A DNA stretch of 64,000 bases from Bacteroidota bacterium. Its GTDB lineage: Bacteria > Bacteroidota > Bacteroidia > CAILMK01 > JAAYUY01. The notes below the pieces were generated by a model. The model did not search any database and was not told the origin of the DNA. It was given only the letters and a program-made list of their open reading frames with translations. Each line of letters opens with the position of its first letter. The first letter of the stretch is position 1. The stretch lies in NCBI GenBank assembly GCA_018698135.1, contig JABINZ010000274.1, positions 7,686 to 71,685 on the forward strand, in the 5' to 3' direction. Made by a program: the position numbers and the translations under genes. Shown in pieces: positions 17,094 to 42,710 of this stretch.

Positions 17094-17424
17094 CTAAACT
17101 GATAATAAATAACACTAATACTGCTTTAATTTTATTTGAGTAAGCTGTATCACTCTTCTCACAAAAACCAAATTTTTCATAAAACTATATTTTAGGGTAA
17201 CAATTAGTAGTCTTTAAAAGATCACTGATACCCAATACTACTATCTGTTAAACAGATTTAATCCAAAAGAAAAAAAATTGCACAAAGTCATATTTTCTTA
17301 TCAAAAATACTTAACTTTGGTTACACGAATAGCGAAACTGCTAACTGCTGAAATACAAAGACATACGTCTTCTCCATATTGTTTTTCCCTACAATATTAT
17401 TTCGTCAAAATTAAACTCAAAACT

Positions 17425-26899: not shown

Positions 26900-28537
26900 T
26901 TAAAAGAATCCAAATATCCCATTAGGGGTATATCCTAAAAACCTCAACCATGTTTCTCCTAATATCATAAAAAGAATCCATGTTATTCCCATCATAGTAA
27001 TACCATATTTGAATGTATCAGACCAACTATATTGATCAGTGCTATATAGTAATAAAGCTGGCTTACTGTTAAAAGGAAGAACGTAAACATGTTCAATAAG
27101 CAAAGCTACAGGAAAAGCAAGGCTCAATACCGGATAACCAAATTTTTGTGCAACACCAATTGCAATCGGCACAAAAATCAATGTACGCATTGTTTTCGAC
27201 TGGAAGATTAGAGCACTAAAGAGCATTGTAAATGTAAGTATTAAATATAAAACGCCAAATGGTGTACTATTATTAAAACCCAGACCATCAAAAACTGCAT
27301 TAACACTTATTGAAGGGAGGTCTGTTACCTTAAATCCAGCTCCTAGTGTATATGCTCCTGCTGAGAACAATAACAAATGCCAAGGAATATCAACTTCATT
27401 CCATTTTACAACACCAATTTTCGGTAATAATGATACAACTGCTCCAAGAAATGCTACAGCAGTTGGGCTAATTCCATGATATTTATCGGTTGTCCATAAT
27501 GCAAGCACAGCAACAAAAATTGCAACGGACCTAACTTCTTCAAAACTCACTTTCCCCATTTTTGAAAGCTCATCTTTCAGCTTCTCCATTCCTCCCTTGA
27601 TTTGAGGAACTCGTTCCTCCTTCTTTATTGGGAAAATAAACTTAGTTCCGACAAATAAACCAATAATCATAAGGGCTAAGGAAATTGGGAATGCAACTAT
27701 CATCCAATCTGTAAAAAAAATATCAGATCCAATAGCTCCACCAATTAGTGCAGCTGCTAAGAGATTGGCTCCAGATCCAGTAACAAAAGCTCCTGCACCC
27801 ATATTAATTTGCAACAAATTCTGTAGAACCAAGTTTCTGCCAAAATTATTTTTGTCCTTACCACCAGTAGCACCATATACTGCAGCAATAACCATAAAGA
27901 TCGGTAATAAAATAGCTGCCTTTGCAGTTGTTGCAGAAATAAAAGCAGAAAGAATTAAGTTGATCACAATAAAACTGACAAAAATTGAAGATGCATTTTT
28001 GCCAAACTTAATGATAAACCATAAGGCAAATCGTTTGGCAACACCCGTCTTTACCAGCATACTTGCCAATACAAACGATAAGATATTTAACCACATTACT
28101 TTATGTCCTAATTGATGATAGGCATCAACTTCTGAAAGCACATTGGTTAAAACTAATGCAATAATAAGTATCAAGGATGTTAAGTAATTTGGTATAGCTT
28201 CTGTTATCCATAAAATGATGGCAGCTAAAAAGATGGCCAGCATTGAAATATTTGTCGAGGTAAATGCTTCTGATCCAATGGCATCATATACGGTTCTTGC
28301 TTTATCACTTAATGTTGATGGATCAATATTATGCAAGAATGATAAATCTGCAAAATAGTTTAAAAAAACAAACACAATAATGGCTAGTGGAGCACCAGCA
28401 ATCAACAAAATCTTTTCAAACTTTGACCGCTCTCGCTGAGGCAACTTATTCAAGTGATAATTCCTCATGTCCAATGGATCAAATCCATTCCCATTTAATT
28501 GCTCATTATTATCTATCTGTCCTTTCTTGCTTTGCAT
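26900..28537 (-). CDS. SLC13/DASS-family (ion-transporter superfamily) anion:cation symporter
   Basis: 545 aa polytopic membrane protein with two-fold internal symmetry. ILWITEAIP and a second …LP(K/F)…GAG… repeat unit resemble DASS/SLC13 permeases. Confidence 0.55.
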   Translation of the reverse strand: MQSKKGQIDNNEQLNGNGFDPLDMRNYHLNKLPQRERSKFEKILLIAGAPLAIIVFVFLNYFADLSFLHNIDPSTLSDKARTVYDAIGSEAFTSTNISMLAIFLAAIILWITEAIPNYLTSLILIIALVLTNVLSEVDAYHQLGHKVMWLNILSFVLASMLVKTGVAKRFALWFIIKFGKNASSIFVSFIVINLILSAFISATTAKAAILLPIFMVIAAVYGATGGKDKNNFGRNLVLQNLLQINMGAGAFVTGSGANLLAAALIGGAIGSDIFFTDWMIVAFPISLALMIIGLFVGTKFIFPIKKEERVPQIKGGMEKLKDELSKMGKVSFEEVRSVAIFVAVLALWTTDKYHGISPTAVAFLGAVVSLLPKIGVVKWNEVDIPWHLLLFSAGAYTLGAGFKVTDLPSISVNAVFDGLGFNNSTPFGVLYLILTFTMLFSALIFQSKTMRTLIFVPIAIGVAQKFGYPVLSLAFPVALLIEHVYVLPFNSKPALLLYSTDQYSWSDTFKYGITMMGITWILFMILGETWLRFLGYTPNGIFGFF

Positions 28538-28599: not shown

Positions 28600-29067
28600 T
28601 TACCATTTAGAATATGGATTTTTCATCAACATAGAATTGTAATATTTTACATCTCCTGTTACTTCCTCTCCTAACCATACAGGCTTTTCAAATGTTTCGT
28701 CCTCTGAGTTTAGTTCTACTTCAGCTATTGTTAAACCTTCATTTTCTCCATAAAACTCATCTACTTCAAAAGTGTGTTTTCCTGCCTTCACTAAAAACCG
28801 AGTTTTATCTATTACACCAGGCTCACATATTTCGAGCAATTGTTGAGCTTCTTCGACTGGAATTACCTTTTCCCATTCATAGCGTGATGCACCTGACTTG
28901 CTCCCAATTCCTTTAACAGTAATAAATCCATTTTCACCTTTAATCCTTACACGAACTGTTCGCTCTGGAATTGATGATAAATAACCTTGAGTTATACGAA
29001 CCTGCTTAACTGCTAGGGCTTTAAATTCTCCTTTAACATGAAACTTACGTTCTATTTCTTGTGCCAT
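28600..29067 (-). CDS. CYTH-domain protein (triphosphate tunnel metalloenzyme; class-IV adenylate cyclase / thiamine-triphosphatase family)
   Basis: 155 aa. N-terminal EIERKF (ExExK) motif. Downstream …RVRIKGENGFITVKG…, …YEWEKVI…, …DKTRFLV…, …FEVDEF…, …IAEVEL… match the conserved charged beta-strand pattern of CYTH/TTM proteins. Confidence 0.75.
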   Translation of the reverse strand: MAQEIERKFHVKGEFKALAVKQVRITQGYLSSIPERTVRVRIKGENGFITVKGIGSKSGASRYEWEKVIPVEEAQQLLEICEPGVIDKTRFLVKAGKHTFEVDEFYGENEGLTIAEVELNSEDETFEKPVWLGEEVTGDVKYYNSMLMKNPYSKW

Positions 29068-29093: not shown

Positions 29094-29771
29094 TTATTCG
29101 TTTGCTAAAGGATCATCAATCATCCCTATAACTCGTTTAATTGCTTGCAAGTAGTTGATATTTTCAACACCTTCAAGTCCAAGATCTGCAATTGTTTTTT
29201 TGATATCATCCACTTCAGTTGACTCAGAATTAATTGATACTACTTTTGCACCATTGATAAGTACATTTGCATACTCACAAATTGTATCATTCACCATATA
29301 TCCAAACCTATGTTTGTAAACACGTACTGCTTGAAGATCTTTGTTTTCAATAATCATTGCAAGGAATTCGTCTAAAGTATATTCATCCTTTTCTAAAACA
29401 GGCATTTCAACCATAAACGCTGGAAAGACCTCTTCTTCAAGCACATTTTTTTTCATAGGAAACTCACCTTTCATTAATGGATTCCACTGTTCCAAACCAT
29501 CAACAGTTTGTACATAGGTTTTAATATCCATCTTACCATCACGTATTTTGGTGTTATTAATATTGTTAGTACGTGATAATATATATATTTCGTTTGAACT
29601 TCGCTCCCACACTTTTTTTGGTACTGGTACTGATAAGCGTACCATTAGTTTGTAAGCTTCGTCAAAAGACTGTCCAAATGATCTAAATTCAAATCTTGGT
29701 TTTGACTGTTCGCCAATTTTCATTTCTTTTTTTGTCATTTTAATCCTTTTTGCTTGACTGGATGTTAACAA
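29094..29771 (-). CDS. Uncharacterised protein, tandem paralog B (possible divergent CYTH-like fold)
   Basis: About 45% identical to the product of 29816..30454 (shared KPRFEFR(S/A)FG, …KIR…MDIK…, …GEFPMK…, …EVFPAF…, …YTL..FL…, …ICE.A.V.INGA…, …NY..AIKRVIG…). The true start is probably an internal Met (MTKKEMKIGEQSKPRFEF… or MKIGEQ…). Confidence 0.5.
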   Translation of the reverse strand: MLTSSQAKRIKMTKKEMKIGEQSKPRFEFRSFGQSFDEAYKLMVRLSVPVPKKVWERSSNEIYILSRTNNINNTKIRDGKMDIKTYVQTVDGLEQWNPLMKGEFPMKKNVLEEEVFPAFMVEMPVLEKDEYTLDEFLAMIIENKDLQAVRVYKHRFGYMVNDTICEYANVLINGAKVVSINSESTEVDDIKKTIADLGLEGVENINYLQAIKRVIGMIDDPLANE

Positions 29772-29815: not shown

Positions 29816-30454
29816 TTAATTTTTTGTTAGATGCAAGTGATCCATAGGACGAGGAAACAAACCGATCACCCTTTTAATAGCCAATGGATAATTAACATTT
29901 TCTTCTTGTTCGTTGAAACCAATTAAGGTTTTTGTATCTAAAATATCTTTTAAATCTTCTGATTCGACTGCAATTGTTTTAATAAGTGCCCCATTTATTA
30001 TTACTTCTGCAACCTCACAAATACAGTTATTAATTGTATAAGCATATCGTTTTTTCTGAGTGTAAACTGCGATAATATCAGGATCAGGGCTAATTAATTC
30101 ATCTAGGAATTGTACAAGTGTATATACATCACGTTCAAATGGAGGGGACTCTACACCAAAAGCGGGGAAAACCTCAGATCTTATAATACTGGCTTTCATC
30201 GGAAATTCTCCAACCAAATAAGGTTCCCATAATTCTAAAGACTTCTTTTCAGAAAGCAGGACCTTAATATCCATCATTTTATTCCGAATTTTGACATTAT
30301 TCTTTATATTTCCGGCAGACATCAGATACACTTCATATATATCACGAATTCGCTCCACTTTCGAAAGCTGATTCATCTTATTGATCAATTCCTCTAAATG
30401 ATGTCCGAATGCTCTAAATTCGAAACGTGGTTTTATTTGATTTTCAGTAGTCAT
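29816..30454 (-). CDS. Uncharacterised protein, tandem paralog A (possible divergent CYTH-like fold)
   Basis: 212 aa. MTTENQIKPRFEFRAFG… See paralog B. No family recognised with confidence. Confidence 0.5.
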   Translation of the reverse strand: MTTENQIKPRFEFRAFGHHLEELINKMNQLSKVERIRDIYEVYLMSAGNIKNNVKIRNKMMDIKVLLSEKKSLELWEPYLVGEFPMKASIIRSEVFPAFGVESPPFERDVYTLVQFLDELISPDPDIIAVYTQKKRYAYTINNCICEVAEVIINGALIKTIAVESEDLKDILDTKTLIGFNEQEENVNYPLAIKRVIGLFPRPMDHLHLTKN

Positions 30455-30543: not shown

Positions 30544-31278
30544 TTACATCGTTAAATCAATTTTATAAAGCTTATTATTAGGGTCTGAAACAACATAAGC
30601 CTCTGTTTCATCATCATTTACTACAATGCCTTCAACACCTGAAATAGGTAAATCATATATTTTCAATGCAATTCCTTCTGTTGTGCATTGTGTTAGAGTT
30701 CTTGACTCATCACTAACAATCCAGATAGTATTACTTATATGATGGTAGAATAAACCAGAATAATCGTGAGCAAATCCTAAAACTAGTTGAGTAACTGAAT
30801 TACTTTTCACATCATACTTAATCAGAGTTCCCTGCATTTTCTCTTTCAGCATGTAATATACTTCGTCAGAATGATTGTATGTAAGACCTTCCAAACCTGA
30901 ATTACCGGGCGTTTGAAGAATATCATATGTTGATTGAAAAACACCTATACTATCTAACTTTATTAAATTACCTTCCCTCTCTTCACAAATACAAATTTCT
31001 GAAGTTTCAGAGTCAACTGTAATACCTTCAAAATCATCACCTTTAAATGGCAACTCCCTCAACACATCTCCAGTTAATGATATTTGATATATTTTACCTT
31101 GATCGCTAACCGTGTATAACGATAGCTTATCTTTAGAATATGCAAGTCCAGATGGTTCTTCTATTTGAATTTCATACGAGTCTTTAATAATTGACATATC
31201 AATATCAAAAGATTCAGGACGGCATGAAAACATGAATAAGAGCCCTAGTATTGAAAACAAAAGAAATCTATTTTTCAC
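30544..31278 (-). CDS. SdiA-regulated/YjiK-like beta-propeller lipoprotein
   Basis: Lipobox …LLFMFSC. EPSGLAY…LYTVSDQGKIY…G…LR.LP..GDDFEGIT pattern matches the YjiK/SdiA-regulated family as recalled. Confidence 0.5.
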   Translation of the reverse strand: MKNRFLLFSILGLLFMFSCRPESFDIDMSIIKDSYEIQIEEPSGLAYSKDKLSLYTVSDQGKIYQISLTGDVLRELPFKGDDFEGITVDSETSEICICEEREGNLIKLDSIGVFQSTYDILQTPGNSGLEGLTYNHSDEVYYMLKEKMQGTLIKYDVKSNSVTQLVLGFAHDYSGLFYHHISNTIWIVSDESRTLTQCTTEGIALKIYDLPISGVEGIVVNDDETEAYVVSDPNNKLYKIDLTM

Positions 31279-31353: not shown

Positions 31354-33069
31354 TTATTGCACTATATAACTTTGCCATTTACTTGAATCGTCTTTGAAAT
31401 CATCAGAGCTATCAAAAGCACCATCTGCAGGAGAATCATCAACTGCTAATAGGTCACCATTCATACCAAAATAATATTCTGATGTAGCTGTTGCTATTCT
31501 GGCATAAAATTTAATGGTAGCACCTGAGGTACTGGTAGTTCCATCCAAAGTACCATCAGTTTTTTCAACATCATGGCCTTTCATATTTATGGTTACACCT
31601 GTTTGGGTAAATGAAGCATCATCTTCACCTTTTACTTTATTTGCTTTTACATATTTGGCTTCAGTACCAGCAAAATAAATTCTAGCTTCAACAATTGTTT
31701 CAGAAGAAACATACTCAAGAACAACATTAATATCGTTAGTAGCATCTGGTGTTGCTGGAAATTCGAATTTTGAAAGTGTAACTGGGGCTTTATTAGTGTA
31801 TGTATTCCACAAAGTTGGATCAGCTTTAAAATTATCTGCATTGGTAGGATCTCCACCATTTGCTTCATCATCAACAATAACATTTCCATCTTTGTCATAA
31901 TAAAACGCTGTTCCGTTTGATAATGTTAATCGAATATAGAATGAGATTTTAACACCAACATCACTTGAGTTTCCTACTACGGAACCACCAGCATCTTCAA
32001 CATCAAGATTTGCCATGCTAATGGTTACTCCTGTTTGAGTAAACGAAGCGTCATCCTCTCCTTTTACTTTATTTGCTTTTACATATGCGGGTGTACTACC
32101 TGCTGCAAAATAGATACGCGCTTCATCAACAGTGACTGTACTTGTATAAGCTAGCTCAACTGTTTCGTATCCTGCAGTTGGTGTTTCGCTATATACTAAG
32201 TCCAAAGTTGGAGCAGAAACACCACCTGAAATTGGAGTATATGAATACCAAAGTGCAGCATCAGCTTCTAACGTTGTTAAATCCGAAACTTTATTATCTT
32301 TATCATAATAATACACATTTGCATTATCAAGAGTAACAGCAACGAAGAATGAAACTTTTTCGTTTTCAACATTTAAATCTGTCATGGTAACAACAGCTTC
32401 GTCAGTACCAATTACACCTGTTAATTTGTTACTCACATTATAAACTGGAGTATTTCCTTTTGCATAAAACACAGAAACATCTGTAACTGTTTCAGTAGTA
32501 GCATATTTCACAGTTACTTCTATAGTATTGCCAGCAGCCGGAGCAGCATTAAATGTTGTTGTTACGCTAGGAATACTTGCATCACCCTTGTTTGCAGCAC
32601 CTGGTGTAGCTTCAGTTCCATTTAACCATACATCTCCTCCATCAGGTATTCTACTGAAAGATGTACCGTCCGCTTGAGAAGGTGGGCAAGTTACTAAATC
32701 AAGTAAAGTCCCATCAGGTTTTCCAAAAGAAACATCCTCGCCACCAGAACTAATAGATACAGTTAATTCTGGTTGAGTCACAGTATAATATCCTTTAGCA
32801 GCAATTTTAGTTCCCTGAGGAATAACAAAACCACCTTTTGGATCAGCTGCGTCATTGATTAAATATCCTGAGATATCTGCTTCAACTGTACCCTTGTTAT
32901 AAAGCTCTACCCAATCACCTTCAACGGTAGGATCCGGATGCTTTGAAAAAATCTCATTTAAGACAATATCCGAATCTTCGGGAGTAGGAGGTTCATATGG
33001 ATCATCCTTTACACAGCTTGACAACAGCGTTGTTATAGCTACAATTGTTAATAATAATAAATTTTTCAT
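31354..33069 (-). CDS. Lipoprotein with N-terminal lamin-tail domain (LTD) followed by three about-145-aa internal repeats
   Basis: Lipobox LLSSC. LTD signature IVLNEIFSK…GDWVELYNKG…DISGYLIND….GYYTV. Three repeats (…VSVFYAKGNTPVYNVSNK…, …ARIYFAAGSTPAYVKANKVKGEDDASFTQTGVTI…, …ARIYFAGTEAKYVKANKVKGEDDASFTQTGVTI…). Confidence 0.65.
   Translation of the reverse strand: MKNLLLLTIVAITTLLSSCVKDDPYEPPTPEDSDIVLNEIFSKHPDPTVEGDWVELYNKGTVEADISGYLINDAADPKGGFVIPQGTKIAAKGYYTVTQPELTVSISSGGEDVSFGKPDGTLLDLVTCPPSQADGTSFSRIPDGGDVWLNGTEATPGAANKGDASIPSVTTTFNAAPAAGNTIEVTVKYATTETVTDVSVFYAKGNTPVYNVSNKLTGVIGTDEAVVTMTDLNVENEKVSFFVAVTLDNANVYYYDKDNKVSDLTTLEADAALWYSYTPISGGVSAPTLDLVYSETPTAGYETVELAYTSTVTVDEARIYFAAGSTPAYVKANKVKGEDDASFTQTGVTISMANLDVEDAGGSVVGNSSDVGVKISFYIRLTLSNGTAFYYDKDGNVIVDDEANGGDPTNADNFKADPTLWNTYTNKAPVTLSKFEFPATPDATNDINVVLEYVSSETIVEARIYFAGTEAKYVKANKVKGEDDASFTQTGVTINMKGHDVEKTDGTLDGTTSTSGATIKFYARIATATSEYYFGMNGDLLAVDDSPADGAFDSSDDFKDDSSKWQSYIVQ
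31560..32110. repeat. Intragenic direct repeat (about 85 bp units, about 85% identical, about 445 bp apart) encoding the repeated KANKVKGEDDASFTQTGVTI motif
   Basis: Compare 31580..31665 (ggttacacctgtttgggtaaatgaagcatcatcttcaccttttactttatttgcttttacatat…) with 32024..32110 (ggttactcctgtttgagtaaacgaagcgtcatcctctccttttactttatttgcttttacatat…). Confidence 0.7.
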
Positions 33070-33128: not shown

Positions 33129-34754
33129 TTAGAAGTCGATTTCACATCTCCAAATAAGCATGCTGTAATCAAATCCCGTACCTGATTCCAAAATGTAATC
33201 GGCATAATCGCCAGCTCCATTTGAATACCTATCATGGTCAACATAAGAATAGTTAAGCATGAATTTAACATTGCGGGAAGCATAATAATTGAGACCCAAA
33301 GAAAACTGACCTTTTTGTCCTCCACGAATGCCATGGTCAAAATCGTTTAAATTAATATAAGAATAACGCGCTGCTACTTCCCAAGCGCCTCCTTTATTTT
33401 CAGCTTTAACCTGAGTAAATTCCCCTTCACGATAATTCCAAGGATGATTTTCACCTGTTAGTAAATAGGCTGATTGCACATAAAATCCACTGAAATTAAT
33501 TGGATCTGAACCGGCTTTCATAGCCAATCTATTAAAGTGATACTCACCCGTCATTCTCCAAGGACCAAATGAAATTGCAGCGTCAAAATTAATATTGGTA
33601 GCCGTTTTAACACCACCAACTTTTGCTACAGTAAATTCTAATTCTGAAACTTTGGTTTCATCTTTTGGATCGTATTTAATTCGGCTATCTGGATGCTTAT
33701 ATAGGCCAGGAGTGCGAATTGAATACCCACCGCTTAATGAAATAAGTTTTCCAGGATCATTTATTATGTAATAAGCGGCTCTAGATGAAAAGCCTTTCAT
33801 CGGCTGAGCTCCTTGCATAATACCTTCATTCGAAGGAATATCTTCATCGAAACTACCTTTGAAATAATTTGCATCACCTTCTAACTGATCGTGTTGATTT
33901 CTTGTTTCTTCGGTATGAACTGCAGCTGAAAACATATAACTTGTATTCCAAGATGCCCAGCCTATACCAATCCTACGATTAGGGTTGAATTCTGCAACAC
34001 TCGCCCTTTCAATTATTTTTAAATAACGTGAAGTTGTGGTTTGTTGCATACCTTGTGGCATACGAAACTGACCAATTCGTAATTGTGCCCATGGTTTACC
34101 AGCTTCTCCAAAATATTTCCGTAAATAAACATCTTTGATGTCAACCATATTTCCATCAAAATCAAAATCGATTTCAGCGTACCAGTTATCACCAACATTG
34201 GCTTTAACGGCAAACCTCATTCTTCTTAACTTTAATAATTGAGATGGTACATCTATTTGGCCAGCTAATTTGTTTTCATCTGGAGTTAGATTGTGATCAT
34301 AGTTATCAAAATATGTCGCACCATCTAAGTATACTCGATTGTCTAACCAAAGTTTGTAATTTTTATCTTTGGATTCAAACGCAATAAACCCTCCGCGTGA
34401 CTCTACAATCAATTCTTGTCTTGATACTTTTTGGCCATATTGATTGAATCTAACATTAGTCGTTAAAATAACATCAATTTGCCCTTTATAATCATCTGTG
34501 TTTACACGAAATTCATCGTAGTCAGCATGATTAAAAATTAGAATTTTAGTTGATCCAGTATTTTGAATAGAAAAAGTTCCATCATTTTTTGACAAAACTT
34601 CCATTTTTGAGCCCTGAAATCGGATGCTCGCACCTTCAATTGCTTTTCCAGTTTCTGAATCAACAATTTTACCTGTGATTGATTCCTGAGCGATTGTGGT
34701 CCCTGTTATTGCCATCAATAACAGAAAAATCATAAATCTGTAAGTTCCTCTCAT
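33129..34754 (-). CDS. Outer-membrane porin, probably phosphate-selective porin O/P family, with N-terminal CarbopepD_reg-like domain
   Basis: 541 aa. Signal peptide. ITGKIVDSETGKAIEGASIRF…NDGTFSI is a carboxypeptidase-regulatory-like domain. Beta-strand-rich remainder ending with an aromatic residue (…RCEIDF). The family call leans on genomic context (adjacent PiT and DUF47). Confidence 0.4.
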   Translation of the reverse strand: MRGTYRFMIFLLLMAITGTTIAQESITGKIVDSETGKAIEGASIRFQGSKMEVLSKNDGTFSIQNTGSTKILIFNHADYDEFRVNTDDYKGQIDVILTTNVRFNQYGQKVSRQELIVESRGGFIAFESKDKNYKLWLDNRVYLDGATYFDNYDHNLTPDENKLAGQIDVPSQLLKLRRMRFAVKANVGDNWYAEIDFDFDGNMVDIKDVYLRKYFGEAGKPWAQLRIGQFRMPQGMQQTTTSRYLKIIERASVAEFNPNRRIGIGWASWNTSYMFSAAVHTEETRNQHDQLEGDANYFKGSFDEDIPSNEGIMQGAQPMKGFSSRAAYYIINDPGKLISLSGGYSIRTPGLYKHPDSRIKYDPKDETKVSELEFTVAKVGGVKTATNINFDAAISFGPWRMTGEYHFNRLAMKAGSDPINFSGFYVQSAYLLTGENHPWNYREGEFTQVKAENKGGAWEVAARYSYINLNDFDHGIRGGQKGQFSLGLNYYASRNVKFMLNYSYVDHDRYSNGAGDYADYILESGTGFDYSMLIWRCEIDF

Positions 34755-34778: not shown

Positions 34779-36620
34779 TTATACTTTTCCAATAATAATT
34801 GAAAGATTTTCATCTTTATTTACTTTTAGTTTTTTCCTTAATCTATACCTACTCATTTCAACGCTTTTAGGTGAAATATTTAAAAGGGATGCTATTTCCT
34901 TTGTAGTTAAGTTAATTCGAATGAGTGTACACAATCTTATCTCATTAGTAGTTAGGTTAGGATAGTTATGCAATAGCCTTTTTTTGAACTCTGAATTAAG
35001 TTTCTCCGCATATTGGTAAAATGTATCACGTTCTTTATCAACATTAAGGTTTTGATTAATCTGGAGCATTAATTGATTGTACTCCTTTTCACCGATGTTA
35101 TTCCCTTCCTGAAGGCGCACTTTGAAGTGCATAATTTGCATTTTAATATTTTTCAAAAAATCATTTTTCTGAATAATACTAAGTGCCATATCTGTAAACT
35201 CTTTGCTCTGTATTTTGTTTTTACTTAAATTTTTCTCAAGATCATTATTTCGTTCCTGTATCCTTAATTTTTCTTTTAACGAATTGACCTTCTTTTCTTT
35301 TTTTGTTAACTGTTTTTGTAGCGATTTATACTTTATTTTCCGATACCTGTGATAGATAAGGAAACCTATAATAATCAATATAGCTATACCAATTTCTATT
35401 AGTAAGTTCCTAGAAATTTCCTTATTTGCATTCTCAGCAGATTCATCCTTATCGCCTTTTGTTTGGACAATTTTAATAGAATCAGTCGATCCTTTTACTT
35501 CAGAACCAACACTATCAATTGTTATAATATTTTCAATCACTTTAGGTTCTTCTATTTGCTGGTTAACAACAACTTCTGTCTTTGTTTGCACAGGCAACAT
35601 AAATACATTATTAACAAAAAACAATAAGAATAATGATACGACACCAGCAATTATTGGAGTTGTAACCCAGCCTGCTGTAATTCCTCCCAAAACACGAAGC
35701 TTAATATTACGCCCACCTTTAATTAATCCTATACCAATAATGGCACCTACAATAGCTTGTGAACTTGATACTGGTACCAAGGGAATTGCTGGGAGCCCAA
35801 TACTTTGAAATGCATTTGACAAACCTTGTGAAGAGAAAACGAATAATACCAATGAATGAGCTAAAACAACAATCATAGCTGTTTCTCCTGAAAGTGGCAT
35901 TAAATTGCTACCAACAGTTTCCATGACCTTACGTGAATAAGTAAAAATTCCAATAGCAATTGCCAAACCTCCAATAAAAAACAGCTGTTGAGCACCAGAA
36001 AATGAGATTATACCAAAATCCAAAGTTTCTAAAGGAATTGCTGGAACAAAAACACCCATTACGTTTGCAATATTATTTGCTCCTAAACTAAATGATCCAA
36101 AAGCACCTACTGCTAATAAACCTGTACGTAAATAGGCATCTCTTTTTAATAAATGAAGATTTACTTTTTTTAAGACAAAATTTAGAATTAAGTATAGTAT
36201 AATTGCGAAAACGGCACCCATTATTGGGCCACTTATCCAGGTTGAAATAATTTTAATTAATGATGTTGTATCTGTTACATTCCCAGTATACAAATTCCAG
36301 CCAATAATAGCTCCAACAATTGCTTGAGAAGTGGAAACTGGTACTTTAAGGCGAGTCATCCAAAAGACTGTCAAAGCTGCTGCTAAAGCCACTGTAAATG
36401 AGCCTGCTATAGCATCTACAGCTCCTAATTTCCCAAGTGTATGAGAAGCACCTGCTCCCTGAAAAACAGCACCAAGTATTACAAAAATTCCAGCAATAAT
36501 GGCTGCTTTTTTAAATCTGACCATACGTGAACCAACCGCTGAACCAAATACGTTAGCGGCATCGTTAGCACCTAATGACCAACCTAAAAACAACCCACTG
36601 GAAAGAAAGAGTAATACCAT
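34779..36620 (-). CDS. PiT-family inorganic phosphate transporter fused to a C-terminal TM helix, coiled-coil and LuxR/GerE-type HTH DNA-binding domain
   Basis: The N-terminal ~340 aa contain both PiT repeat signatures (GANDAANVFGSAVGS… and GANNIANVMGVF…) in a polytopic membrane domain. Then one more TM (LLIEIGIAILIIIGFLIY), a K/E-rich heptad region, and a C-terminal …LTTNEIRLCTLIRINLTTKEIASLLNISPKSVEMSRYRLRKKLKV matching the LuxR-type HTH. Confidence 0.7.
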   Translation of the reverse strand: MVLLFLSSGLFLGWSLGANDAANVFGSAVGSRMVRFKKAAIIAGIFVILGAVFQGAGASHTLGKLGAVDAIAGSFTVALAAALTVFWMTRLKVPVSTSQAIVGAIIGWNLYTGNVTDTTSLIKIISTWISGPIMGAVFAIILYLILNFVLKKVNLHLLKRDAYLRTGLLAVGAFGSFSLGANNIANVMGVFVPAIPLETLDFGIISFSGAQQLFFIGGLAIAIGIFTYSRKVMETVGSNLMPLSGETAMIVVLAHSLVLFVFSSQGLSNAFQSIGLPAIPLVPVSSSQAIVGAIIGIGLIKGGRNIKLRVLGGITAGWVTTPIIAGVVSLFLLFFVNNVFMLPVQTKTEVVVNQQIEEPKVIENIITIDSVGSEVKGSTDSIKIVQTKGDKDESAENANKEISRNLLIEIGIAILIIIGFLIYHRYRKIKYKSLQKQLTKKEKKVNSLKEKLRIQERNNDLEKNLSKNKIQSKEFTDMALSIIQKNDFLKNIKMQIMHFKVRLQEGNNIGEKEYNQLMLQINQNLNVDKERDTFYQYAEKLNSEFKKRLLHNYPNLTTNEIRLCTLIRINLTTKEIASLLNISPKSVEMSRYRLRKKLKVNKDENLSIIIGKV

Positions 36621-37270
36621 TACATCATAACTTTGATAGAAAGCTGTGAAAGAATATCTGCTACTTCTTCAGCACAGTCTGAGACCTGCTCAATGTGTAA
36701 TGCAAAATATCGCAAGTGGATCTTCTGGGCAAGTTCTAATTCATCCAATTCCTGAAATAGTTTGAGTTTAATATCATTTGCAAATTTGTCTGCTTCACGT
36801 TCATAAAGGTAAATTTTGTGAATATAATCTTTAATTCGCATGGGCTCAGTAAAAAATAACCTTGCTGCAGAAATAGCTGCATTGGCAGCTGCTGTTGAGA
36901 TTTCGGTTAAGCGGGAATAATCTTTCACCAAAGCAGCTGGTATTTCAGGAACTTCAACCTCAAATTCACCTACATCTGTTTTAGCTGTATCAATTATATC
37001 ATCTAATTTGTCAATAAGCAATATTACATCTGCAGAATGCTGTGGGATAAGTGAGTGTATAAAAAAATAGTTTTCAATTTTTCGTTGAATTGAATCTGCT
37101 CTTGCTTCAATTTTATCAAGTCGTTTCAAATTTTCCTTAAAGCGATCTTTATCATCATCCAGATAATTATTTATTGCTTCATTAAAAAGCATGACGCCCT
37201 CTTCAATTGCATTTATAAACTCATCTACATGATGAATAACCTTTCCTGCTGTCTTAAATAATTTTGACAT
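36620..37270 (-). CDS. DUF47-family (PhoU-like) phosphate-transport regulator
   Basis: 216 aa, all-helical. Matches the YkaA/DUF47 partner typically encoded immediately upstream of pit genes. Its stop overlaps the PiT start codon (ATGA at 36620). Confidence 0.6.
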   Translation of the reverse strand: MSKLFKTAGKVIHHVDEFINAIEEGVMLFNEAINNYLDDDKDRFKENLKRLDKIEARADSIQRKIENYFFIHSLIPQHSADVILLIDKLDDIIDTAKTDVGEFEVEVPEIPAALVKDYSRLTEISTAAANAAISAARLFFTEPMRIKDYIHKIYLYEREADKFANDIKLKLFQELDELELAQKIHLRYFALHIEQVSDCAEEVADILSQLSIKVMM

Positions 37271-37523
37271 TTCTTCTTTGACTTAAATCAACACTTTGGA
37301 TTCAAAATAACAACCAGTAAATTCAATTTCGAGACGCTAAAATACTTCAAACATTCATTAATAATAGCTGTAGAGTGTTAATTGTTTTCTAAAACACTAA
37401 TTATCAATAATGTAAAACAAAGGATGTAGTGTAATTTACAAAAACGTTGTACTATTTCCTACTTCACTAGTAAAATTCAATATTCATTAATTGATGTTCA
37501 ATTAGCTGTAAAAAATGAAATAG

Positions 37524-37575
37524 GTTAAAAAAGAAAAAACCTCACAAGCTTCTCTTCATCGAAACCAGTGAGGTT
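37524..37575 (-). terminator. Putative intrinsic terminator of the arylsulfotransferase gene
   Basis: 8-bp stem AACCTCAC/GTGAGGTT (37538..37545 / 37568..37575). On the minus-strand RNA it is followed by UUUUUUCUUUUUU (complement of 37524..37537). Lies 22 nt downstream of the stop at 37597. The loop is unusually long (22 nt). Confidence 0.5.
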
Positions 37576-37596: not shown

Positions 37597-39243
37597 TCAC
37601 TTTTTTATAAACCGCTCAGAAAAGCTACCTCTTTCAGAATCCACTTTAACAACATACATACCTGTTTCAAAGCTTTGTATATCAATCACTAAAACTCCTT
37701 TTACTTCTTCATCTGTTACATAAACAATCTCACCAATTGTATTAAAGATTTGAACTGAAACATTTTTACTTTCTATGTCAATAAAACTAATATTGATTTT
37801 TTCTTTTGCTGGATTAGGATAAATTTTAAGCTTATTACTGTCTGAGTTACTTTCGATACCAAGAACTAAATGACATGAGTCAGAAATAGTATTTGAATTT
37901 TCTATTGTTTTTCCAGGTATTAAGGTATGGCTAGCAAAACCAGTATATGAACTTGGATAATATGTGCATCTAAAAACACTATTCATTGATGGGGTTGTTC
38001 CTTGACTAATTACTCCAGTATTTTTTACCGGATTAATGTATTCCCATACTTGCATTCCAGACGTTGTAGTCTCAATAAAACTACCAGACCCACCAATACA
38101 TATTAGAACATTCCCATTTGGTAATTGTTGTGCTCCTGAAATGTTTTGAGAGTATAAACCATTTGGATCTCCGTAATTGTAATTCCATGAAGTAGAACTT
38201 GGCAAAAAAGGTAGTGAAATATCATATGTATAGCCATTTACTGGAGGATTTATTATTTCTACAGTAGAATAATTTCCATCTGGTCTTCTTACTCCATTAT
38301 TAAAAATCATAATTTGGTCTTCGAAAGGATAGCCAGTCGGAATCCAATACGCATTATGCTGTCCATATAATTTTTGAGTTGCACTAGTACCTTTGTCATA
38401 AGCTGCTGGATTTCCCCATCGGTACAATAAATCACCACCAGCTCCTGAATTTCCTCCAGTATGGGATGCCGCTTCTGCGGTTGATGTACTATGATCAATT
38501 ATCCAGATTTCATTGAAATTATGCGAACTCAATACAATCTGATCTAATACAGGATTGTAATCAATCGAATTCAAATGTATCCAATCTTCGTTTGTAGTAG
38601 TGCTCTTATAATTAATATTAATTAGTTGATGATTTGACGCAATTGCTCCAAAATTAGGTTTATTGTTGTCATAATCCTGAACTAAATGATCCCATAAATG
38701 CCACTCCCAAACGATTGTTCCTCCATTTATTCCTTTGGGTTGCACTTCAATTATATATTCACTCCAAACAGTTGTCGGAGCTAAAGATGGATTTAAACCT
38801 GCTGCAATTGCTTCTGTCTTGGTTTTTGATTCCCAGGCAATTATTAATACATTTCCATTGGGCATTGCTTTTACATCGTGATGCTGACATTTCGTAGCAT
38901 CAGAAACGATATAGCTCCATACTACATTTCCATCCCAATCAATTTTCTCAACAATTCCACCTGATCCCCCAACTTTAAAAGTTGTATTATTTGTATTCCC
39001 TGTTCTCAGTAATGTCCCATCGGATAAGAGGTAAACTGACTGACCAGGTTTATATGCACTTTGCCAGCTTTTTACTTTTTTACCACATTTGTCAATCAAA
39101 TAAGTGGTTGTACTTGTATTTGGAGCAAAAAGCACATAACCATCATCTAATGAATTATTCTCATGTTGAATAAGTCCAACTGTCTGACCTTTAACAATAT
39201 AGCTAAATAGTAGTATGACAGCAAACAGTGAAAAATACTTCAT
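37597..39243 (-). CDS. Aryl-sulfate sulfotransferase (ASST)-family beta-propeller protein with T9SS C-terminal sorting domain
   Basis: Signal peptide. Segments …NPVLDQIVLSSHNFNEIWIIDH… and …WEWHLWDHLVQDYD… resemble the arylsulfotransferase family. C-terminus LKIYPNPAKEKINISF…MYVVKVDSERGSFSERFIKK is a Por_Secre_tail. Confidence 0.6.
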   Translation of the reverse strand: MKYFSLFAVILLFSYIVKGQTVGLIQHENNSLDDGYVLFAPNTSTTTYLIDKCGKKVKSWQSAYKPGQSVYLLSDGTLLRTGNTNNTTFKVGGSGGIVEKIDWDGNVVWSYIVSDATKCQHHDVKAMPNGNVLIIAWESKTKTEAIAAGLNPSLAPTTVWSEYIIEVQPKGINGGTIVWEWHLWDHLVQDYDNNKPNFGAIASNHQLININYKSTTTNEDWIHLNSIDYNPVLDQIVLSSHNFNEIWIIDHSTSTAEAASHTGGNSGAGGDLLYRWGNPAAYDKGTSATQKLYGQHNAYWIPTGYPFEDQIMIFNNGVRRPDGNYSTVEIINPPVNGYTYDISLPFLPSSTSWNYNYGDPNGLYSQNISGAQQLPNGNVLICIGGSGSFIETTTSGMQVWEYINPVKNTGVISQGTTPSMNSVFRCTYYPSSYTGFASHTLIPGKTIENSNTISDSCHLVLGIESNSDSNKLKIYPNPAKEKINISFIDIESKNVSVQIFNTIGEIVYVTDEEVKGVLVIDIQSFETGMYVVKVDSERGSFSERFIKK

Positions 39244-39272
39244 AAAAAATGTTGTTTTGAGTTAATTGTTCA

Positions 39273-40805
39273 TTACTCTTTTATAAATCGCTCAGCAAAA
39301 ATTCTACTATCACTTTCTAATCTAACTATATAAATACCTGCATCATATCCTTCAATATTTATAGTTTTTATATCGGATGAACGATAAACTACTTCACCAA
39401 ATGCATTAATAACAGAAACAGAAAACTTTTCACCTTCACTTTCATAAAAATTAATATTAAGCTTGTCTTTTGCTGGATTTGGATAAAGCTTTAAGCCTTT
39501 GTCATTTTCGTTTGTATTGATTGAAGATGTTCCTGCATCTCGGACAAGACGTACATAATTATAAATTCTGATTACATCTCCTTGTGGACCATGACCATTT
39601 GGATAATCAGCAGGATCACCTACTTTCGGGTCGCTTCTTTGACAACCAGCACCATGAACATCCATTAAGGTATAATTACCAGAGTTTGGTGGTTGTTCCA
39701 TAAAACCAAGTCCTTCTCCAAAACAAACATATGATGCAAATCCACCTGATTTTTGGGTTTGCATTGTAGCATGTGTTGTTCCACTCCAATACTGCGCATA
39801 ATTATCATTTCCACCTTCATCCTTAATTTTTGTGCAACTAAATAGAGGATCAATTGCAGAGGAACTGCTTGTAGAAGGCGATCTTGTGTAGTCAACAATA
39901 CTTTGAAGTTCTTTAACATTTGGAAGTCTCCAATCTGAATGACTTGCTATTGTTGCATTTTCAGCATAGCTTAATGCAGCTTCCCATGTCATTCCACTTC
40001 CGTCATCATCTTGTGTCCACATTAAACCAGTTGCATTATCAGTTATAGTTTTGTCTCCATTGTCTTTAAAATTATTTTTACCATAGTCAGTATTTCCACG
40101 GACATACATAATGTAAAACTGTTTGTCAACAGACTGCCCAGGCATTGGTCCAGTAGGATAGCCTTTAATACGACCATCGGCAAAGTTTACCCCAAACATG
40201 GTTTCTGCTCCCATCATAGTAGTACCGACATAAATATTCGATGAAGCCATTTGCGCATCAATAAGGCGTTCGTTTGCGCTTAAATCACCATAGCCAAAAT
40301 CAAAATAATTAGTATCGATATAAGGAACCAAGCCAGCAGTTGATGTTCCTGAATATCCACTGGGGTCTTTACCACTAAACACAATAAGTGAATACATTTC
40401 TTTTATGGATGGCAGTCTCCAATCGGAATAACCTGCCAAACCAAATGTATCGGCTGCAGCCATAGCCTCATCATATGATAATTTATCATCATAATCAATG
40501 ACCCCATCCCAATCTAAATCAGGGCTTTTTTGCCACATTAAACCTGTCACATTATCTGTAACTGTTCCATCTCCATTGTCTGTATAATCAGTTGCATATC
40601 TTGTATAATGAGCATCTTGGCCATAGAAAGCCTGACCAGCAGTTGGAGCCGTAATTATTGACATCGAATCGTAATACAGTTTCTGATCAGTATCTACAAT
40701 AGAAAAAGTGATTTGAGCAAAGACAGTATTCAGTTGTATAATCAGTACTAGGATAAAAGAAAAAATAATTGAGACTCTTTTCAAGATATTTTTCATGGCA
40801 TTCAA
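39273..40805 (-). CDS. DUF1566 (Lcl C-terminal-like) domain protein, two copies, with T9SS C-terminal sorting domain
   Basis: Two repeats of …T(V/I)TDN(V/A)TGLMW…(Y/W)…A…SDWRLP(S/N)(I/V)KE(M/L)(Y/Q)S(L/I)… are the DUF1566 signature. C-terminus LKLYPNPAKDKLNINFY…IYIVRLESDSRIFAERFIKE. Confidence 0.65.
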   Translation of the reverse strand: MNAMKNILKRVSIIFSFILVLIIQLNTVFAQITFSIVDTDQKLYYDSMSIITAPTAGQAFYGQDAHYTRYATDYTDNGDGTVTDNVTGLMWQKSPDLDWDGVIDYDDKLSYDEAMAAADTFGLAGYSDWRLPSIKEMYSLIVFSGKDPSGYSGTSTAGLVPYIDTNYFDFGYGDLSANERLIDAQMASSNIYVGTTMMGAETMFGVNFADGRIKGYPTGPMPGQSVDKQFYIMYVRGNTDYGKNNFKDNGDKTITDNATGLMWTQDDDGSGMTWEAALSYAENATIASHSDWRLPNVKELQSIVDYTRSPSTSSSSAIDPLFSCTKIKDEGGNDNYAQYWSGTTHATMQTQKSGGFASYVCFGEGLGFMEQPPNSGNYTLMDVHGAGCQRSDPKVGDPADYPNGHGPQGDVIRIYNYVRLVRDAGTSSINTNENDKGLKLYPNPAKDKLNINFYESEGEKFSVSVINAFGEVVYRSSDIKTINIEGYDAGIYIVRLESDSRIFAERFIKE

Positions 40806-40902: not shown

Positions 40903-41616
40903 TTAAATAAATCTGGATTTTATAAACTCATCAAAACCTTCTTTATACTTAACCGAAACTGATATTCGTAAATCTCCAAAAATAATGTTACCTCTTTCAA
41001 TGGTTGTAATACTATTGAGATTTACAATAAAGGAACGATGCACACGCATAAATTGTTCTGTGGGAAGTTTTTCTTCAAGGGATTTCATAGTGAGTAGAGA
41101 GAGAATTGGTTTGACCTCTTGTACATATATTTTCACATAGTCTTTCAATCCTTCAATATAGCGGATGTCAGACAATTTGATTTTAACCAATTTATATTCA
41201 GATTTTACAAAAAGGAAATCATCTTTTTGTTCTATAGTGGTTTCCGCTTTCTCTTTTAAATCAAAAAAAGCTTTGGCCTTATTAGCTGATTTCAGAAATT
41301 CTTCATAACCATAAGGCTTAAGTAAATAATCTAAAGCGTCTACTTTAAAGCCTTCGAGTGCATATTCGGCATAAGCTGTGGTAAAGATGACTTTAATGCT
41401 TTTATCTAGAGTTATAGAGAACTCTAATCCGTTTAAATCAGGCATTTGAATATCAGCAAATATTAAATCAACCTGATGATCATTGAGAACTTCCATGGCA
41501 TTAAATGCACTGTTGCAAGAAGCCGTAAGTTCAAGAAATGGTGTTTTCTCAATAAAAGTGCTTAGCTGTTTTAAGGCTAAAGGTTCATCGTCCATTGCAA
41601 TGCATCGAATAATCAT
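40903..41616 (-). CDS. LytTR-family response regulator
   Basis: REC domain (IAMDDEPLAL…DLIFADIQMPDLNGLEF…) plus C-terminal LytTR DNA-binding domain. Confidence 0.8.
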   Translation of the reverse strand: MIIRCIAMDDEPLALKQLSTFIEKTPFLELTASCNSAFNAMEVLNDHQVDLIFADIQMPDLNGLEFSITLDKSIKVIFTTAYAEYALEGFKVDALDYLLKPYGYEEFLKSANKAKAFFDLKEKAETTIEQKDDFLFVKSEYKLVKIKLSDIRYIEGLKDYVKIYVQEVKPILSLLTMKSLEEKLPTEQFMRVHRSFIVNLNSITTIERGNIIFGDLRISVSVKYKEGFDEFIKSRFI

Positions 41617-42710
41617 GATACGGGGATTTTAAGATAAATAGAATAGGTATCTTTTGAATCAGTGATCGTTAGATCATGCTTGTTTTCATATAGTAATTCC
41701 AATCTTTTCTTCACATTGCTTAATCCAATACCCGAATCCTCTTCAATCTGTCCTTTTTGATTATGATTGCTATTGATGCATAAAAACTCAATGAATTCAT
41801 CAGACTGAGTAAGTGATATTTTAATAAAAGAAGGATGACTATAACTGACTCCATGTTTGAAAGCATTTTCAATAAAGGAGATGAAAAGCAATGGAGGAAT
41901 ACTCACATCGGGTAATTCATCGGGTAATTCAATGCTTAATCCAACTTTCTCATCAATACGAAGTTTCATTAAATCGATAAAGTTTTGAATAAATGCTATT
42001 TCTTTTTTCAGGCTGCTCTCCCCTTTTTCTGATTCATATAGCAAATAGCGCATCATACCAGATAGTTCTATAATTGCTTTCTGCGAATCCTTTTTATCAA
42101 TATCAATCAGGGCATGAATATTATTCAGTGTATTTAAAAAGAAATGAGGACTTATTTGGTTTTTCAAAAACGCTAATTCTGATCGCAAGTTTTCCTTTTC
42201 CATTTCTCTCAGGCTTTTTTCATCAGCAAGCCATTTCTGGGTTACACGCAAAGCAGTTGAGAGTCCAACAACTAAAAAAGAAATCAATACATTATTGATC
42301 AACATTATAGAGCGTTTCGGAGGATGATCTTGTGGAGGAGGTCTGAAGTTATGATCTGGAGGCCCAAATCCAGGTTGTGGATGAGGTGGTAAACCTTGAG
42401 GCCTTGCTTTTACTCCTTCAAAAAGAGGCATGAATAATTCCCAGGCTAATGCAAGTAGAGAAACACTTACAATAACGACAATGATATACAGCACTCTTTC
42501 TTTTCGGAAAAAGAGTTTGGGAACAAACACATAGGAATTTACAAGAAACAGGATAATGAAAATAGCTGTTCTGATCCATGCATTGAAGGTGCGATGATCC
42601 CACATCATTCGCTTGCCCTCTGCATCCATTAGAGGAATTGTAAAAAGAATGATGCAAATGGCTATAAATGCAAATACACGAATGAGATTATTTTGCTTTT
42701 CCTGAATCAT
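41613..42710 (-). CDS. LytS/YehU-type sensor histidine kinase (His_kinase family) with Pro-rich periplasmic/linker segment
   Basis: N-terminal TM helices. Pro-rich stretch PQGLPPHPQPGFGPPDHNFRPPPQDHPP. LRSELAFLKNQISPHFFLNTLNNIHALI matches the LytS-type phospho-acceptor. 4-nt overlap with the response-regulator gene. Confidence 0.75.
   Translation of the reverse strand: MIQEKQNNLIRVFAFIAICIILFTIPLMDAEGKRMMWDHRTFNAWIRTAIFIILFLVNSYVFVPKLFFRKERVLYIIVVIVSVSLLALAWELFMPLFEGVKARPQGLPPHPQPGFGPPDHNFRPPPQDHPPKRSIMLINNVLISFLVVGLSTALRVTQKWLADEKSLREMEKENLRSELAFLKNQISPHFFLNTLNNIHALIDIDKKDSQKAIIELSGMMRYLLYESEKGESSLKKEIAFIQNFIDLMKLRIDEKVGLSIELPDELPDVSIPPLLFISFIENAFKHGVSYSHPSFIKISLTQSDEFIEFLCINSNHNQKGQIEEDSGIGLSNVKKRLELLYENKHDLTITDSKDTYSIYLKIPVS

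Follow-up and report, generated by a model that had tools for sequence, protein, structure and literature searches.

A PiT-family transporter fused to a LuxR-type DNA-binding domain in a conserved gene cluster of Bacteroidota

The window analyzed here is a stretch of 64,000 nucleotides from a Bacteroidota bacterium (assembly GCA_018698135.1, contig JABINZ010000274.1, positions 7,686 to 71,685), and on its minus strand it carries a gene in which a PiT-type phosphate transporter core is followed by an additional transmembrane (TM) helix, a helical region and a LuxR-type helix-turn-helix (HTH) domain. Directly upstream lies a co-oriented gene for a DUF47 protein. The two genes and the parts of the fusion protein are located in the window as follows:

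36620..37270, minus strand: DUF47/PhoU_div PitR-like protein of 216 residues (Pfam PF01865, E=1.2e-17)
34779..36620, minus strand: PiT-LuxR fusion gene, 613 residues, coordinates including the stop codon
35586..36620, minus strand: PiT/PHO4 core, residues 1-345 (Pfam PHO4 and TmPiT matches)
35409..35585, minus strand: predicted periplasmic linker, residues 346-404, disordered and acidic, hypervariable in length and sequence
35352..35408, minus strand: extra TM helix, residues ~405-423 (from the sequence and the start of model helix 398-503)
34959..35351, minus strand: predicted cytoplasmic coiled-coil/helical region, residues 424-554 (alignment and model)
34809..34958, minus strand: GerE/LuxR-type HTH domain, residues 555-604 (Pfam PF00196, Foldseek)

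This layout of PiT core, extra TM helix, coiled coil and LuxR-type HTH domain had been proposed in an earlier reading of the sequence alone (the sequence-only reading), and it is borne out by Pfam, by a 40-sequence alignment, and by an AlphaFold (AF2) model with a mean predicted local distance difference test score (pLDDT) of 77.5. The reading frame is unbroken from the PiT part to the HTH part. PHO4 (PF01384) is matched with E=2.4e-56 and 191.6 bits (cutoff 33.7), and the profile search for the HTH domain, suggested as a check by the same reading, finds GerE (PF00196) at the C-terminal residues 555-604 with E=4.5e-7 and 29.8 bits, above the gathering cutoff of 23.5. No phosphorelay, kinase or Y_Y_Y domain is among the Pfam matches of the 613-residue protein. 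The model is similar to the structure of TmPiT (6l85; Foldseek E=4.5e-12, TM-score 0.65 normalised to the target), which is also found by phmmer (E=9.3e-22), and its C terminus matches the LuxR/FixJ-type domain of StyR (1yio) with a Foldseek probability of 1.0. The HTH domain is modeled with a pLDDT above 80 as a four-helix fold (helices 558-568, 573-580, 584-598 and 606-612), and it is near-invariant in the alignment (...NISPKSVEMxRYRLRKK).

The predicted topology of the fusion protein is coherent. TmPiT is a dimer with both termini extracellular (PMC7413737), and as its C terminus lies outside, the extra helix can be explained as the segment that brings the chain back in: the PiT core is predicted to end outside the cell, and the TM helix returns the chain to the cytoplasm. 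This segment is hydrophobic in all homologues aligned, and the strongly basic stretch HRYRKIKYK that directly follows it fits a cytoplasmic position by the positive-inside rule. In the alignment, the PiT core is highly conserved. The linker in front of the extra helix cannot be aligned, and its residues 349-400 are predicted to be disordered (pLDDT ~30). With the extra TM helix begins a single continuous model helix (398-503), followed by more helices at 509-552, and the helical region 424-554 contains the conserved residues A479, I483, N486, R531, F534 and F545.

The fusion is not a peculiarity of this genome. A database of 5.8 billion proteins yielded at least 8000 relatives. The best 120 of these were taken (51-99% identity, 585-628 residues), and 118 of them contain both PF01384 and PF00196. 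A 99%-identical copy with the same neighbours is present in an independent ENA assembly, and an identical 614-residue relative (69% identity) is encoded by two different Logan sequencing runs. From a genomic scan with one genome per species, which gave at least 600 matching stretches, 80 loci were kept, and full fusions account for 48 of these; the hosts include Lentimicrobiaceae, Flavobacteriaceae (Algibacter and the cultured Lutibacter litoralis JCM 13034), Saprospiraceae, Chitinophagaceae, Paludibacter, Petrimonas, and other Bacteroidales. The fusion is also carried by the complete genome OZ223471.1 (L014). GerE was further found in six of six long relatives tested, which were obtained by searching 50%-identity cluster representatives exhaustively with HMMER and share 39-60% identity in the core (P0175, P0177, P0196, P0202, P0211 and P0213); P0177 additionally has a weak DUF6377 match in the helical region. 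Since relatives at 39-60% core identity carry it, the fusion is old. Both checks that the sequence-only reading had asked for at this point, the one for a frameshift or missed stop and the survey of orthologues for the same fusion, thus came out in favour of the fusion. We thus regard the fusion as a genuine but uncharacterised feature that occurs in hundreds of Bacteroidota; its support is better, and its extent greater, than the sequence-only reading had described. NCBI annotates such proteins as plain 'inorganic phosphate transporter', and the fusion and its cluster therefore stay hidden. Our literature searches found no described PiT-HTH fusion; the parts are known (a PiT transporter, a PitR-type partner, and a TM-GerE output of the BguR/SusR type), and it is their combination that is not described in the literature searched.

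In 78 of the 80 loci, the DUF47 gene directly precedes the PiT gene on its upstream side. In the window, the junction of the two genes reads ...ATGATGTAATGG... (ATG ATG TAA TGG), which is a 1-nt overlap of the TAATG type; the coupling had been described as an ATGA overlap, and of this claim the adjoining, overlapping gene stands and the ATGA does not. A close described counterpart is the PitA-PitR pair of Staphylococcus aureus, in which a PiT gene likewise lies beside an accessory gene for a single-domain PhoU_div (PF01865) protein: PitR consists of one PF01865 domain and is encoded next to pitA, it acts only with its cognate PiT transporter, and it is the dominant accessory regulator that restrains the phosphate two-component system when inorganic phosphate (Pi) is plentiful (PMC13170248). 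That pair reports phosphate import to a transcription system, and we propose a PitR-type modulation for the fusion locus by analogy. There are two differences. The output of PitA-PitR is the separate two-component system PhoPR, whereas here the DNA-binding domain is fused to the transporter, and the fusion core, unlike that of PitA, belongs to a different, short PiT subfamily with an Asn in the second signature. PhoPR was not found in 228 of 926 genomes of diverse taxa that include Bacteroidota (PMC13170248).

Downstream of the fusion gene, seven more genes continue on the same strand, and they include a CYTH-domain protein of the triphosphate tunnel metalloenzyme (TTM) family:

33129..34754, minus strand: Porin_O_P (OprO/OprP-like anion porin), 541 residues (Pfam, E=1.2e-33)
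31354..33069, minus strand: lamin-tail-domain (LTD) protein, 571 residues (Pfam LTD, E=1.1e-12)
30544..31278, minus strand: SdiA-regulated/phytase-like beta-propeller protein, 244 residues (PF06977, E=1.5e-21; PF13449, E=1.9e-9)
29816..30454, minus strand: U212, uncharacterised paralogue of U225, 212 residues (hhalign probability 100% against U225)
29094..29771, minus strand: U225, uncharacterised conserved protein with a predicted TTM/CYTH-like fold
28600..29067, minus strand: CYTH-domain protein, 155 residues (PF01928, E=1.5e-15)
26900..28537, minus strand: DASS-family Na+-coupled anion symporter, 545 residues (Na_sulph_symp, E=3.2e-52), the last conserved gene of the cluster

The cluster runs from ~37431 to 26900 with downstream intergenic gaps of 24-89 nt. 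The sequence-only reading had described a locus of DUF47, PiT and porin genes; those genes are there, and the Porin_O_P match confirms the OprO/P-like porin, but the conserved unit is far larger. Its conservation was assessed in 33 fusion loci for which 7.5 kb or more of sequence is available downstream, and in 16 non-fusion loci. The porin, U225 and the CYTH protein are each encoded in 32 of the 33 fusion loci, the DASS symporter in 29, the LTD protein in 28, and the phytase-like protein in 16, whereas each cluster gene occurs in only 1-3 of the 16 non-fusion loci. The gene order is likewise conserved in 28-32 of the 33, versus 1-3 of the 16. Across families, U225, CYTH and DASS are 65-85% identical (U225 72-78% between Bacteroidota families, CYTH 72-83%, DASS 65-85%). 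The DASS symporter also matches TIGR00785 with 204.8 bits (cutoff 198.6). By its gene content, the cluster looks like a system for the uptake and processing of phosphate or condensed phosphates; a Flavobacterium Pho-regulon paper does not mention the cassette.

The two paralogues U212 and U225, which are 45% identical, have no Pfam or NCBIfam match. An AF2 model of U225, based on a two-sequence alignment, is of moderate confidence with a pLDDT of 70.6, and all its top Foldseek matches are TTM/CYTH proteins with E-values from 1.6e-5, which gives a hint of a triphosphate-tunnel fold, from structure prediction only: as CYTH homologues by sequence profile, U212 and U225 were rejected (hhalign probability <1%). 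At its N terminus, U225 has the motif PRFEFRxFG in place of the ExExK of CYTH proteins, and U225 may therefore bind a ligand without catalysing a reaction.

Among the cell-envelope components, the LTD protein has a lipoprotein-type signal (..LLSSC-VKDD), which we take, by its resemblance to the Bacteroidota lipobox, to be a surface-export signal. Internally, it repeats ...ARIYFA.G...YVKANKVKGEDDASFTQTGVTI... twice, nearly verbatim. The porin begins with a CarboxypepD_reg-like domain, a kind of domain that is found at the N terminus of SusC-type transporters, and its orthologues are either long (526-541 residues) or short (452-461 residues).

Upstream of the DUF47 gene, three candidate promoter elements were located:

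37425..37431, minus strand: distal heptamer CACTACA, candidate HTH site, 161 nt upstream of the DUF47 ATG
37369..37375, minus strand: proximal heptamer CTCTACA, candidate HTH site that precedes the DUF47 ATG by 105 nt and the -7-like box by 66 bp
37303..37309, minus strand: Bacteroidota-type -7-like box TATTTTG (imperfect TAnnTTTG), from reading the sequence

The TATTTTG box would be the promoter element, and strict TAnnTTTG boxes are found at the same place in 29 related promoters. In an alignment of relatives of 69-99% identity, both heptamers stand as invariant islands in otherwise diverged, AT-rich promoters. More generally, the 250 nt upstream of the fusion loci contain direct heptamer repeats of the sequence CWCTACA, with the variants CTATACA and CCCTACA. 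The density of CWCTACA is 4.95/kb in the 250 nt upstream of DUF47; in the remainder of these loci, counted on both strands, it is 0.075/kb, and free DUF47-PiT pairs have 0.43/kb in their upstream sequence. Counted locus by locus irrespective of their relatedness, at least one CWMTACA is present in 41 of 44 fusion promoters versus 5 of 28 non-fusion promoters, and at least two are present in 29 of 44 versus 1 of 28, the one being a fusion cut by a contig end. In these promoters, 81 copies of CWMTACA are in forward and 7 in reverse orientation. The fusion promoters are more AT-rich than the others, and base composition thus does not explain a motif that contains C. Relative to the ATG, the copies cluster near -100, -155 and -200 and are spaced 53-57 and 43 bp apart, and the proximal heptamer is 65-70 bp upstream of TAnnTTTG in 15 of 29 scorable promoters.

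Two loci separate the HTH domain from the cluster. In a locus from Saprospiraceae (L048), the cluster is present and both the tail and the motif are absent, whereas the fused sister locus L018 has one exact and two relaxed heptamers. Conversely, a locus from Lentimicrobiaceae (L015) consists of a two-gene unit of DUF47 and fusion without the cluster, and the motif is kept. The heptamer tracks the HTH domain rather than the cluster. A scan for sigma-70 promoters and terminators gave 26 promoter-like sites where 33 were expected, and it is uninformative, as can be expected given the different promoter consensus of Bacteroidota. Immediately behind the arylsulfotransferase-like gene that precedes the cluster, a possible terminator was noted at 37534-37573 on the minus strand (CCTCAC...GTGAGG with a 22-nt loop, then a T-run), which would isolate the cluster promoter; owing to the length of its loop, it is not among the hits of the scan.

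The tail of the fusion protein is related to a known class of regulators. As the sequence-only reading had suspected, it resembles Y_Y_Y-LuxR regulators: it is 37% identical to a Y_Y_Y-GerE protein over 180 residues (E=5e-33), with the similarity starting right after the TM helix, and a profile search recovers many proteins with Y_Y_Y and GerE. Searches with the tail alone match proteins that combine Y_Y_Y (PF07495) or DUF6377 with GerE, as well as short stand-alone TM-GerE proteins. PiT is the only transporter partner among the best 120 of 560 tail matches, most of which are short fragments, and this count is therefore provisional. Literature searches on BT3442 and DUF6377 gave no functional information. 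A genetically validated example of the class is BguR of Formosa agariphila, in which a periplasmic beta-propeller/Y_Y_Y sensor is followed by a single TM helix, a linker and GerE, without any phosphorelay; its deletion abolishes growth on laminarin, induction of the associated gene cluster in the wild type exceeds 80-fold, and its authors regard only SusR as comparable (bioRxiv 10.64898/2026.01.10.698779). BguR and Bacteroides SusR share with the fusion protein the single TM helix, the cytoplasmic linker, the C-terminal GerE HTH domain and the absence of phosphorelay domains. The BguR gene also adjoins or sits inside the locus that it controls, and BguR is an activator with a predicted upstream motif. 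The homology to this class was measured on Y_Y_Y-GerE proteins of the same architecture as BguR. The differences lie in the input. BguR senses with a soluble, glycan-binding periplasmic part of tandem beta-propellers and Y_Y_Y, where the fusion has a polytopic PiT core and a disordered linker; a soluble periplasmic sensor with a signal peptide (TPR-like in SusR) is common to SusR and BguR and is not shared by the fusion; and the BguR locus handles a glycan, whereas the fusion locus would handle phosphorus or another anion. On the transporter side, a comparable protein is CbrA, a transporter fused to a kinase that has been termed a 'rare transceptor' (bioRxiv 10.64898/2026.03.10.710862). CbrA also unites a full transporter domain (SSSF) and a signalling output in one polypeptide, but its output is a histidine kinase that acts via a response regulator, whereas the output of the fusion is the GerE HTH domain itself, and the transporter family is another one.

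Natural variants of the architecture also exist. One is a locus of Draconibacterium orientale (L058; DYSI01000049.1, 171-9164), which has the same gene set in an exact circular permutation: TM-GerE, porin, LTD, phytase-like, U212, U225, CYTH, DASS, DUF47, and a PiT gene that ends with the linker. The PiT-LuxR gene is thus broken exactly between linker and TM helix, and its stand-alone TM-GerE gene is homologous to the tail region of the fusion. A tandem duplication with subsequent loss of both ends would be expected to leave such an order of genes. This is a Rosetta-stone case, which indicates that the regulator belongs to the cluster and is functionally tied to DUF47-PiT. Three reverse-oriented copies of the motif TGTAG lie between the tail gene and the porin gene, downstream of the former; upstream of the tail gene, 170 nt of sequence are available.

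Other members of the same PiT subclade are bare forms of ~347 residues, linker-only forms without HTH domain, and forms of ~400-414 residues in which a short conserved basic tail follows the linker and the TM helix and which occur in Rikenellaceae and other Bacteroidales. In eleven loci (L047, L050, L051, L054, L056, L066, L068, L071, L072, L079 and L080), the PiT proteins have 408-414 residues (462 as called in L071), the tail LERKKKxELxxSEEKFWKNIK replaces the LuxR module, and there is no porin cluster nearby; these tails may be remnants of fusions or a docking motif. A Perlabentimonas sp. (L073, 785-2269) encodes a 494-residue PiT in which a long coiled coil comes after the linker and the TM helix and no HTH domain follows, with no cluster downstream and no heptamers upstream, and this is either a decayed fusion or a distinct variant. 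Outside the Bacteroidota, in Calditrichia, Acidobacteria, and delta- and alphaproteobacterial metagenome-assembled genomes, PiT open reading frames (ORFs) of 481-498 residues (L049, L062, L067, L074, L075 and L077) have an unrelated, soluble C-terminal extension of ~150 residues without TM helix or Pfam match, which by topology would lie outside the cytoplasmic membrane.

Taken together, these observations support the general idea of the sequence-only reading, a one-component regulator built on a transporter, and they suggest the following mechanism, to which we give slightly better than even chances: the fusion protein is a membrane-resident, dimeric, autoregulating one-component activator, in which the PiT core and the PitR-like protein monitor import, the BguR-type module binds the heptamers, and the operon is the regulon. 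The protein would dimerise, as TmPiT is dimeric and the tail is a long coiled coil, and it would stay in the membrane. Its HTH domains would bind two to three direct CWMTACA heptamers in the promoter of its own operon, which precede the -7 box by ~66, 122 and 165 bp, an upstream position that would be compatible with activation, and the bound protein would activate the nine-gene cluster of DUF47, the fusion itself, porin, LTD, phytase-like protein, the two putative TTM-fold paralogues, CYTH and DASS. More speculatively, the signal would be the transport or occupancy state of the PiT core. The relay would run via membrane contacts of the extra helix and via the translationally coupled PitR-like protein and not through the linker, because the latter is floppy and hypervariable, and if the operon behaves analogously to the S. 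aureus PitR system, a drop in import through PiT would turn it on. We infer Pi flux or binding as the signal, the DNA binding and the activation from sequence.

Several points weigh against this mechanism. Across the window, CWCTACA is a short word at chance frequency (12 found versus 10.2 expected), with no window-wide enrichment, and the operator signal lies in the conserved position and the comparative data and not in the word itself. LuxR-type HTH dimers usually bind inverted repeats. The heptamers are lone and direct, 43 and 53-57 bp apart, which is unusual for such dimers, and there is no inverted or partner half-site within 30 bp of them, with flat information content on either side. 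The co-occurrence statistics of motif and HTH domain ignore phylogenetic relatedness, as indicated above. The split cluster (L058) and the tail-less ones (L048 and L053) imply that the covalent link is dispensable. A direct mechanical relay through the modeled linker is doubtful, and the actual mediator may be the PitR-like DUF47 protein. For the direction of regulation, the analogy with S. aureus PitR is the sole basis, and the ion coupling and even the substrate of the core are uncertain, given an Asn and a Val at the positions of TmPiT D258 and D327.

A more far-reaching version, which we consider tentative and less probable than its negation, is that of a transport-coupled transcription factor: a working PiT transporter whose transport cycle is read together with the PitR-like partner and controls the DNA-binding domain of the same protein, and which thereby is the switch of a nine-gene pathway for uptake and cleavage of condensed phosphates.

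The strongest alternative, although in our view an unlikely one, is that the fusion is only a tether. The protein would then be a working transporter and a transcription factor between which no information is passed; the fusion would anchor the TM-GerE part and fix its dose relative to PiT, and the signal (e.g., cytoplasmic Pi, polyphosphate, a metabolite, or DUF47 alone) would go straight to the cytoplasmic helical region. The disordered, hypervariable linker agrees with this, as do the many stand-alone TM-GerE proteins that contain the same cytoplasmic module and the occurrence of the module as a separate gene in L058, and free PiT proteins of the subclade carry the linker, or linker and TM helix, without an HTH domain. 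However, different families have retained the fusion, at core identities as low as 39%, the separated genes of L058 remain in one cluster, PitR-type proteins act only with their cognate transporter (PMC13170248), and a mere anchor needs no 12-helix transporter.

The remaining alternatives concern the PiT core, which is not quite what it was initially taken for. The core had been called complete with both GANDxAN repeats; the first signature is indeed GANDAANV (residues 17-24), but the second is GANNIANV (residues 180-187), and the Asp of the third Na+ site is replaced by Val252. Mapped on the window protein, the TmPiT sites are N19-D20, S96-T97-S98, N182-N183, S285-S286-S287 and V252. TmPiT binds Pi and two Na+ via D22/S105/T106/T107 and D258/S345/T346/T347, and a third Na+ via D327 (PMC7413737). 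The second signature is GANN[IV]ANV, with Asn at the position of TmPiT D258, in 120 of the best 120 homologues. With TmPiT and the PiT-SLC20 family, the fusion core shares the fold, the first GANDxAN signature, both P-V-S-[ST]-[ST] hairpin tips and both conserved Trp residues, and a dimeric elevator-type architecture is expected. It differs from TmPiT in being ~55 residues shorter in its central part, in the added 270-residue C-terminal signalling extension, and in having lost two of three Na+-coordinating acidic residues (D258 to Asn and D327 to Val). These changes define a short PiT subfamily, probably with different ion coupling.

A further alternative, which we regard as improbable, is that the subfamily carries or senses another oxyanion, e.g., sulfate, and that the operon is no phosphorus system. 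The best NCBIfam match of the core is indeed the CysP sulfate permease (NF053884), and the last gene of the cluster encodes a DASS/Na_sulph_symp transporter. CysP of Bacillus subtilis, a member of the PiT family with proven transport activity, likewise has Asn at this position of the second signature (PMC5840216), and like the fusion core it is a short PiT of ~350 residues. Yet the match scores only 87.6 bits against a cutoff of 400, and CysP lacks the first-signature Asp that is kept here. CysP also belongs to a sulfur-assimilation operon and has neither a PitR partner nor an HTH domain, whereas the fusion always has a PitR-type partner adjacent, and its neighbours Porin_O_P, the phytase-like protein, CYTH and the two putative TTM-fold proteins are tied to phosphate or triphosphate chemistry.

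Still somewhat less probable is that the core is a pure receptor, which has given up transport and as a dedicated sensor only binds its ligand. Such a role would fit the Asn and Val at the positions of D258 and D327, as TmPiT D258A keeps its Pi affinity with uptake reduced to 18.9%, and hPiT2 D506N abolishes uptake (PMC7413737). However, the same Asn-Asn pair and the full set of site residues are found in essentially all 140 relatives, down to ~32% identity, with site residues identical in fused and free proteins. The changes are thus not the mark of a dead sensor, because they are common to all free relatives, including bare proteins of 330-350 residues that have no plausible role except transport, and we rejected the D-to-N exchange as a fusion-specific sign. 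CysP transports despite its Asn (PMC5840216), the fused cores are 63-69% identical to free PiT proteins, and they are as conserved as the free ones, which suggests that the core is still under transporter-like constraint. Finally, that two neighbouring genes were joined artificially by a frameshift or missed stop in assembly or annotation is practically eliminated, as the unbroken frame, the independent ENA and Logan copies, the two domains in nearly all close homologues, and the agreement of 48 loci from different families rule out such an error as far as sequence data go, and nothing was found in its favour.

If the fusion is indeed a transport-coupled transcription factor, it would be the first transporter-to-DNA one-component 'transceptor', and it would be the dedicated switch, in many Bacteroidota, of an unrecognised pathway with a porin, an LTD lipoprotein, a DASS symporter and three triphosphate-tunnel proteins. 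Whether phosphate is sensed by monitoring its import or by cytoplasmic sufficiency is still debated (PMC13170248, 2026). As a transporter is here welded to a transcription factor and a PitR-like partner is coupled to it, the whole signalling path would be contained in two proteins behind one promoter, and the import-sensing question is directly testable in this system, for which a cultured host (Lutibacter litoralis JCM 13034) and natural controls (split, tail-less, TM-only and two-gene versions) exist. The BguR/SusR class of membrane one-component regulators would be extended from glycans to ion and nutrient sensing with a transporter as input, and the conserved gene set may serve the use of condensed or organic phosphate in marine and sediment Bacteroidota.

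Some further features of the window are less closely connected with the cluster. Upstream, at 37597-40805 and 40903-42710 (both minus strand), are genes for two secreted proteins sorted by the type IX secretion system (Arylsulfotrans with Por_Secre_tail, and Lcl_C with Por_Secre_tail), for a LytTR response regulator, and a 365-residue ORF that overlaps the latter. Of these genes, the 99%-identical contig has the arylsulfotransferase-like one only, and none of them recurs beside the cluster in the other loci. Rfam finds no RNA element in or near the locus; its sole match in the window is a tRNA at 17022-17093 on the plus strand. This tRNA lies just 5' of one of three very large ORFs on the plus strand, which are found at 1697-6967 (1756 residues), 17278-23718 (2146 residues, the one next to the tRNA) and 48105-55040 (2311 residues).

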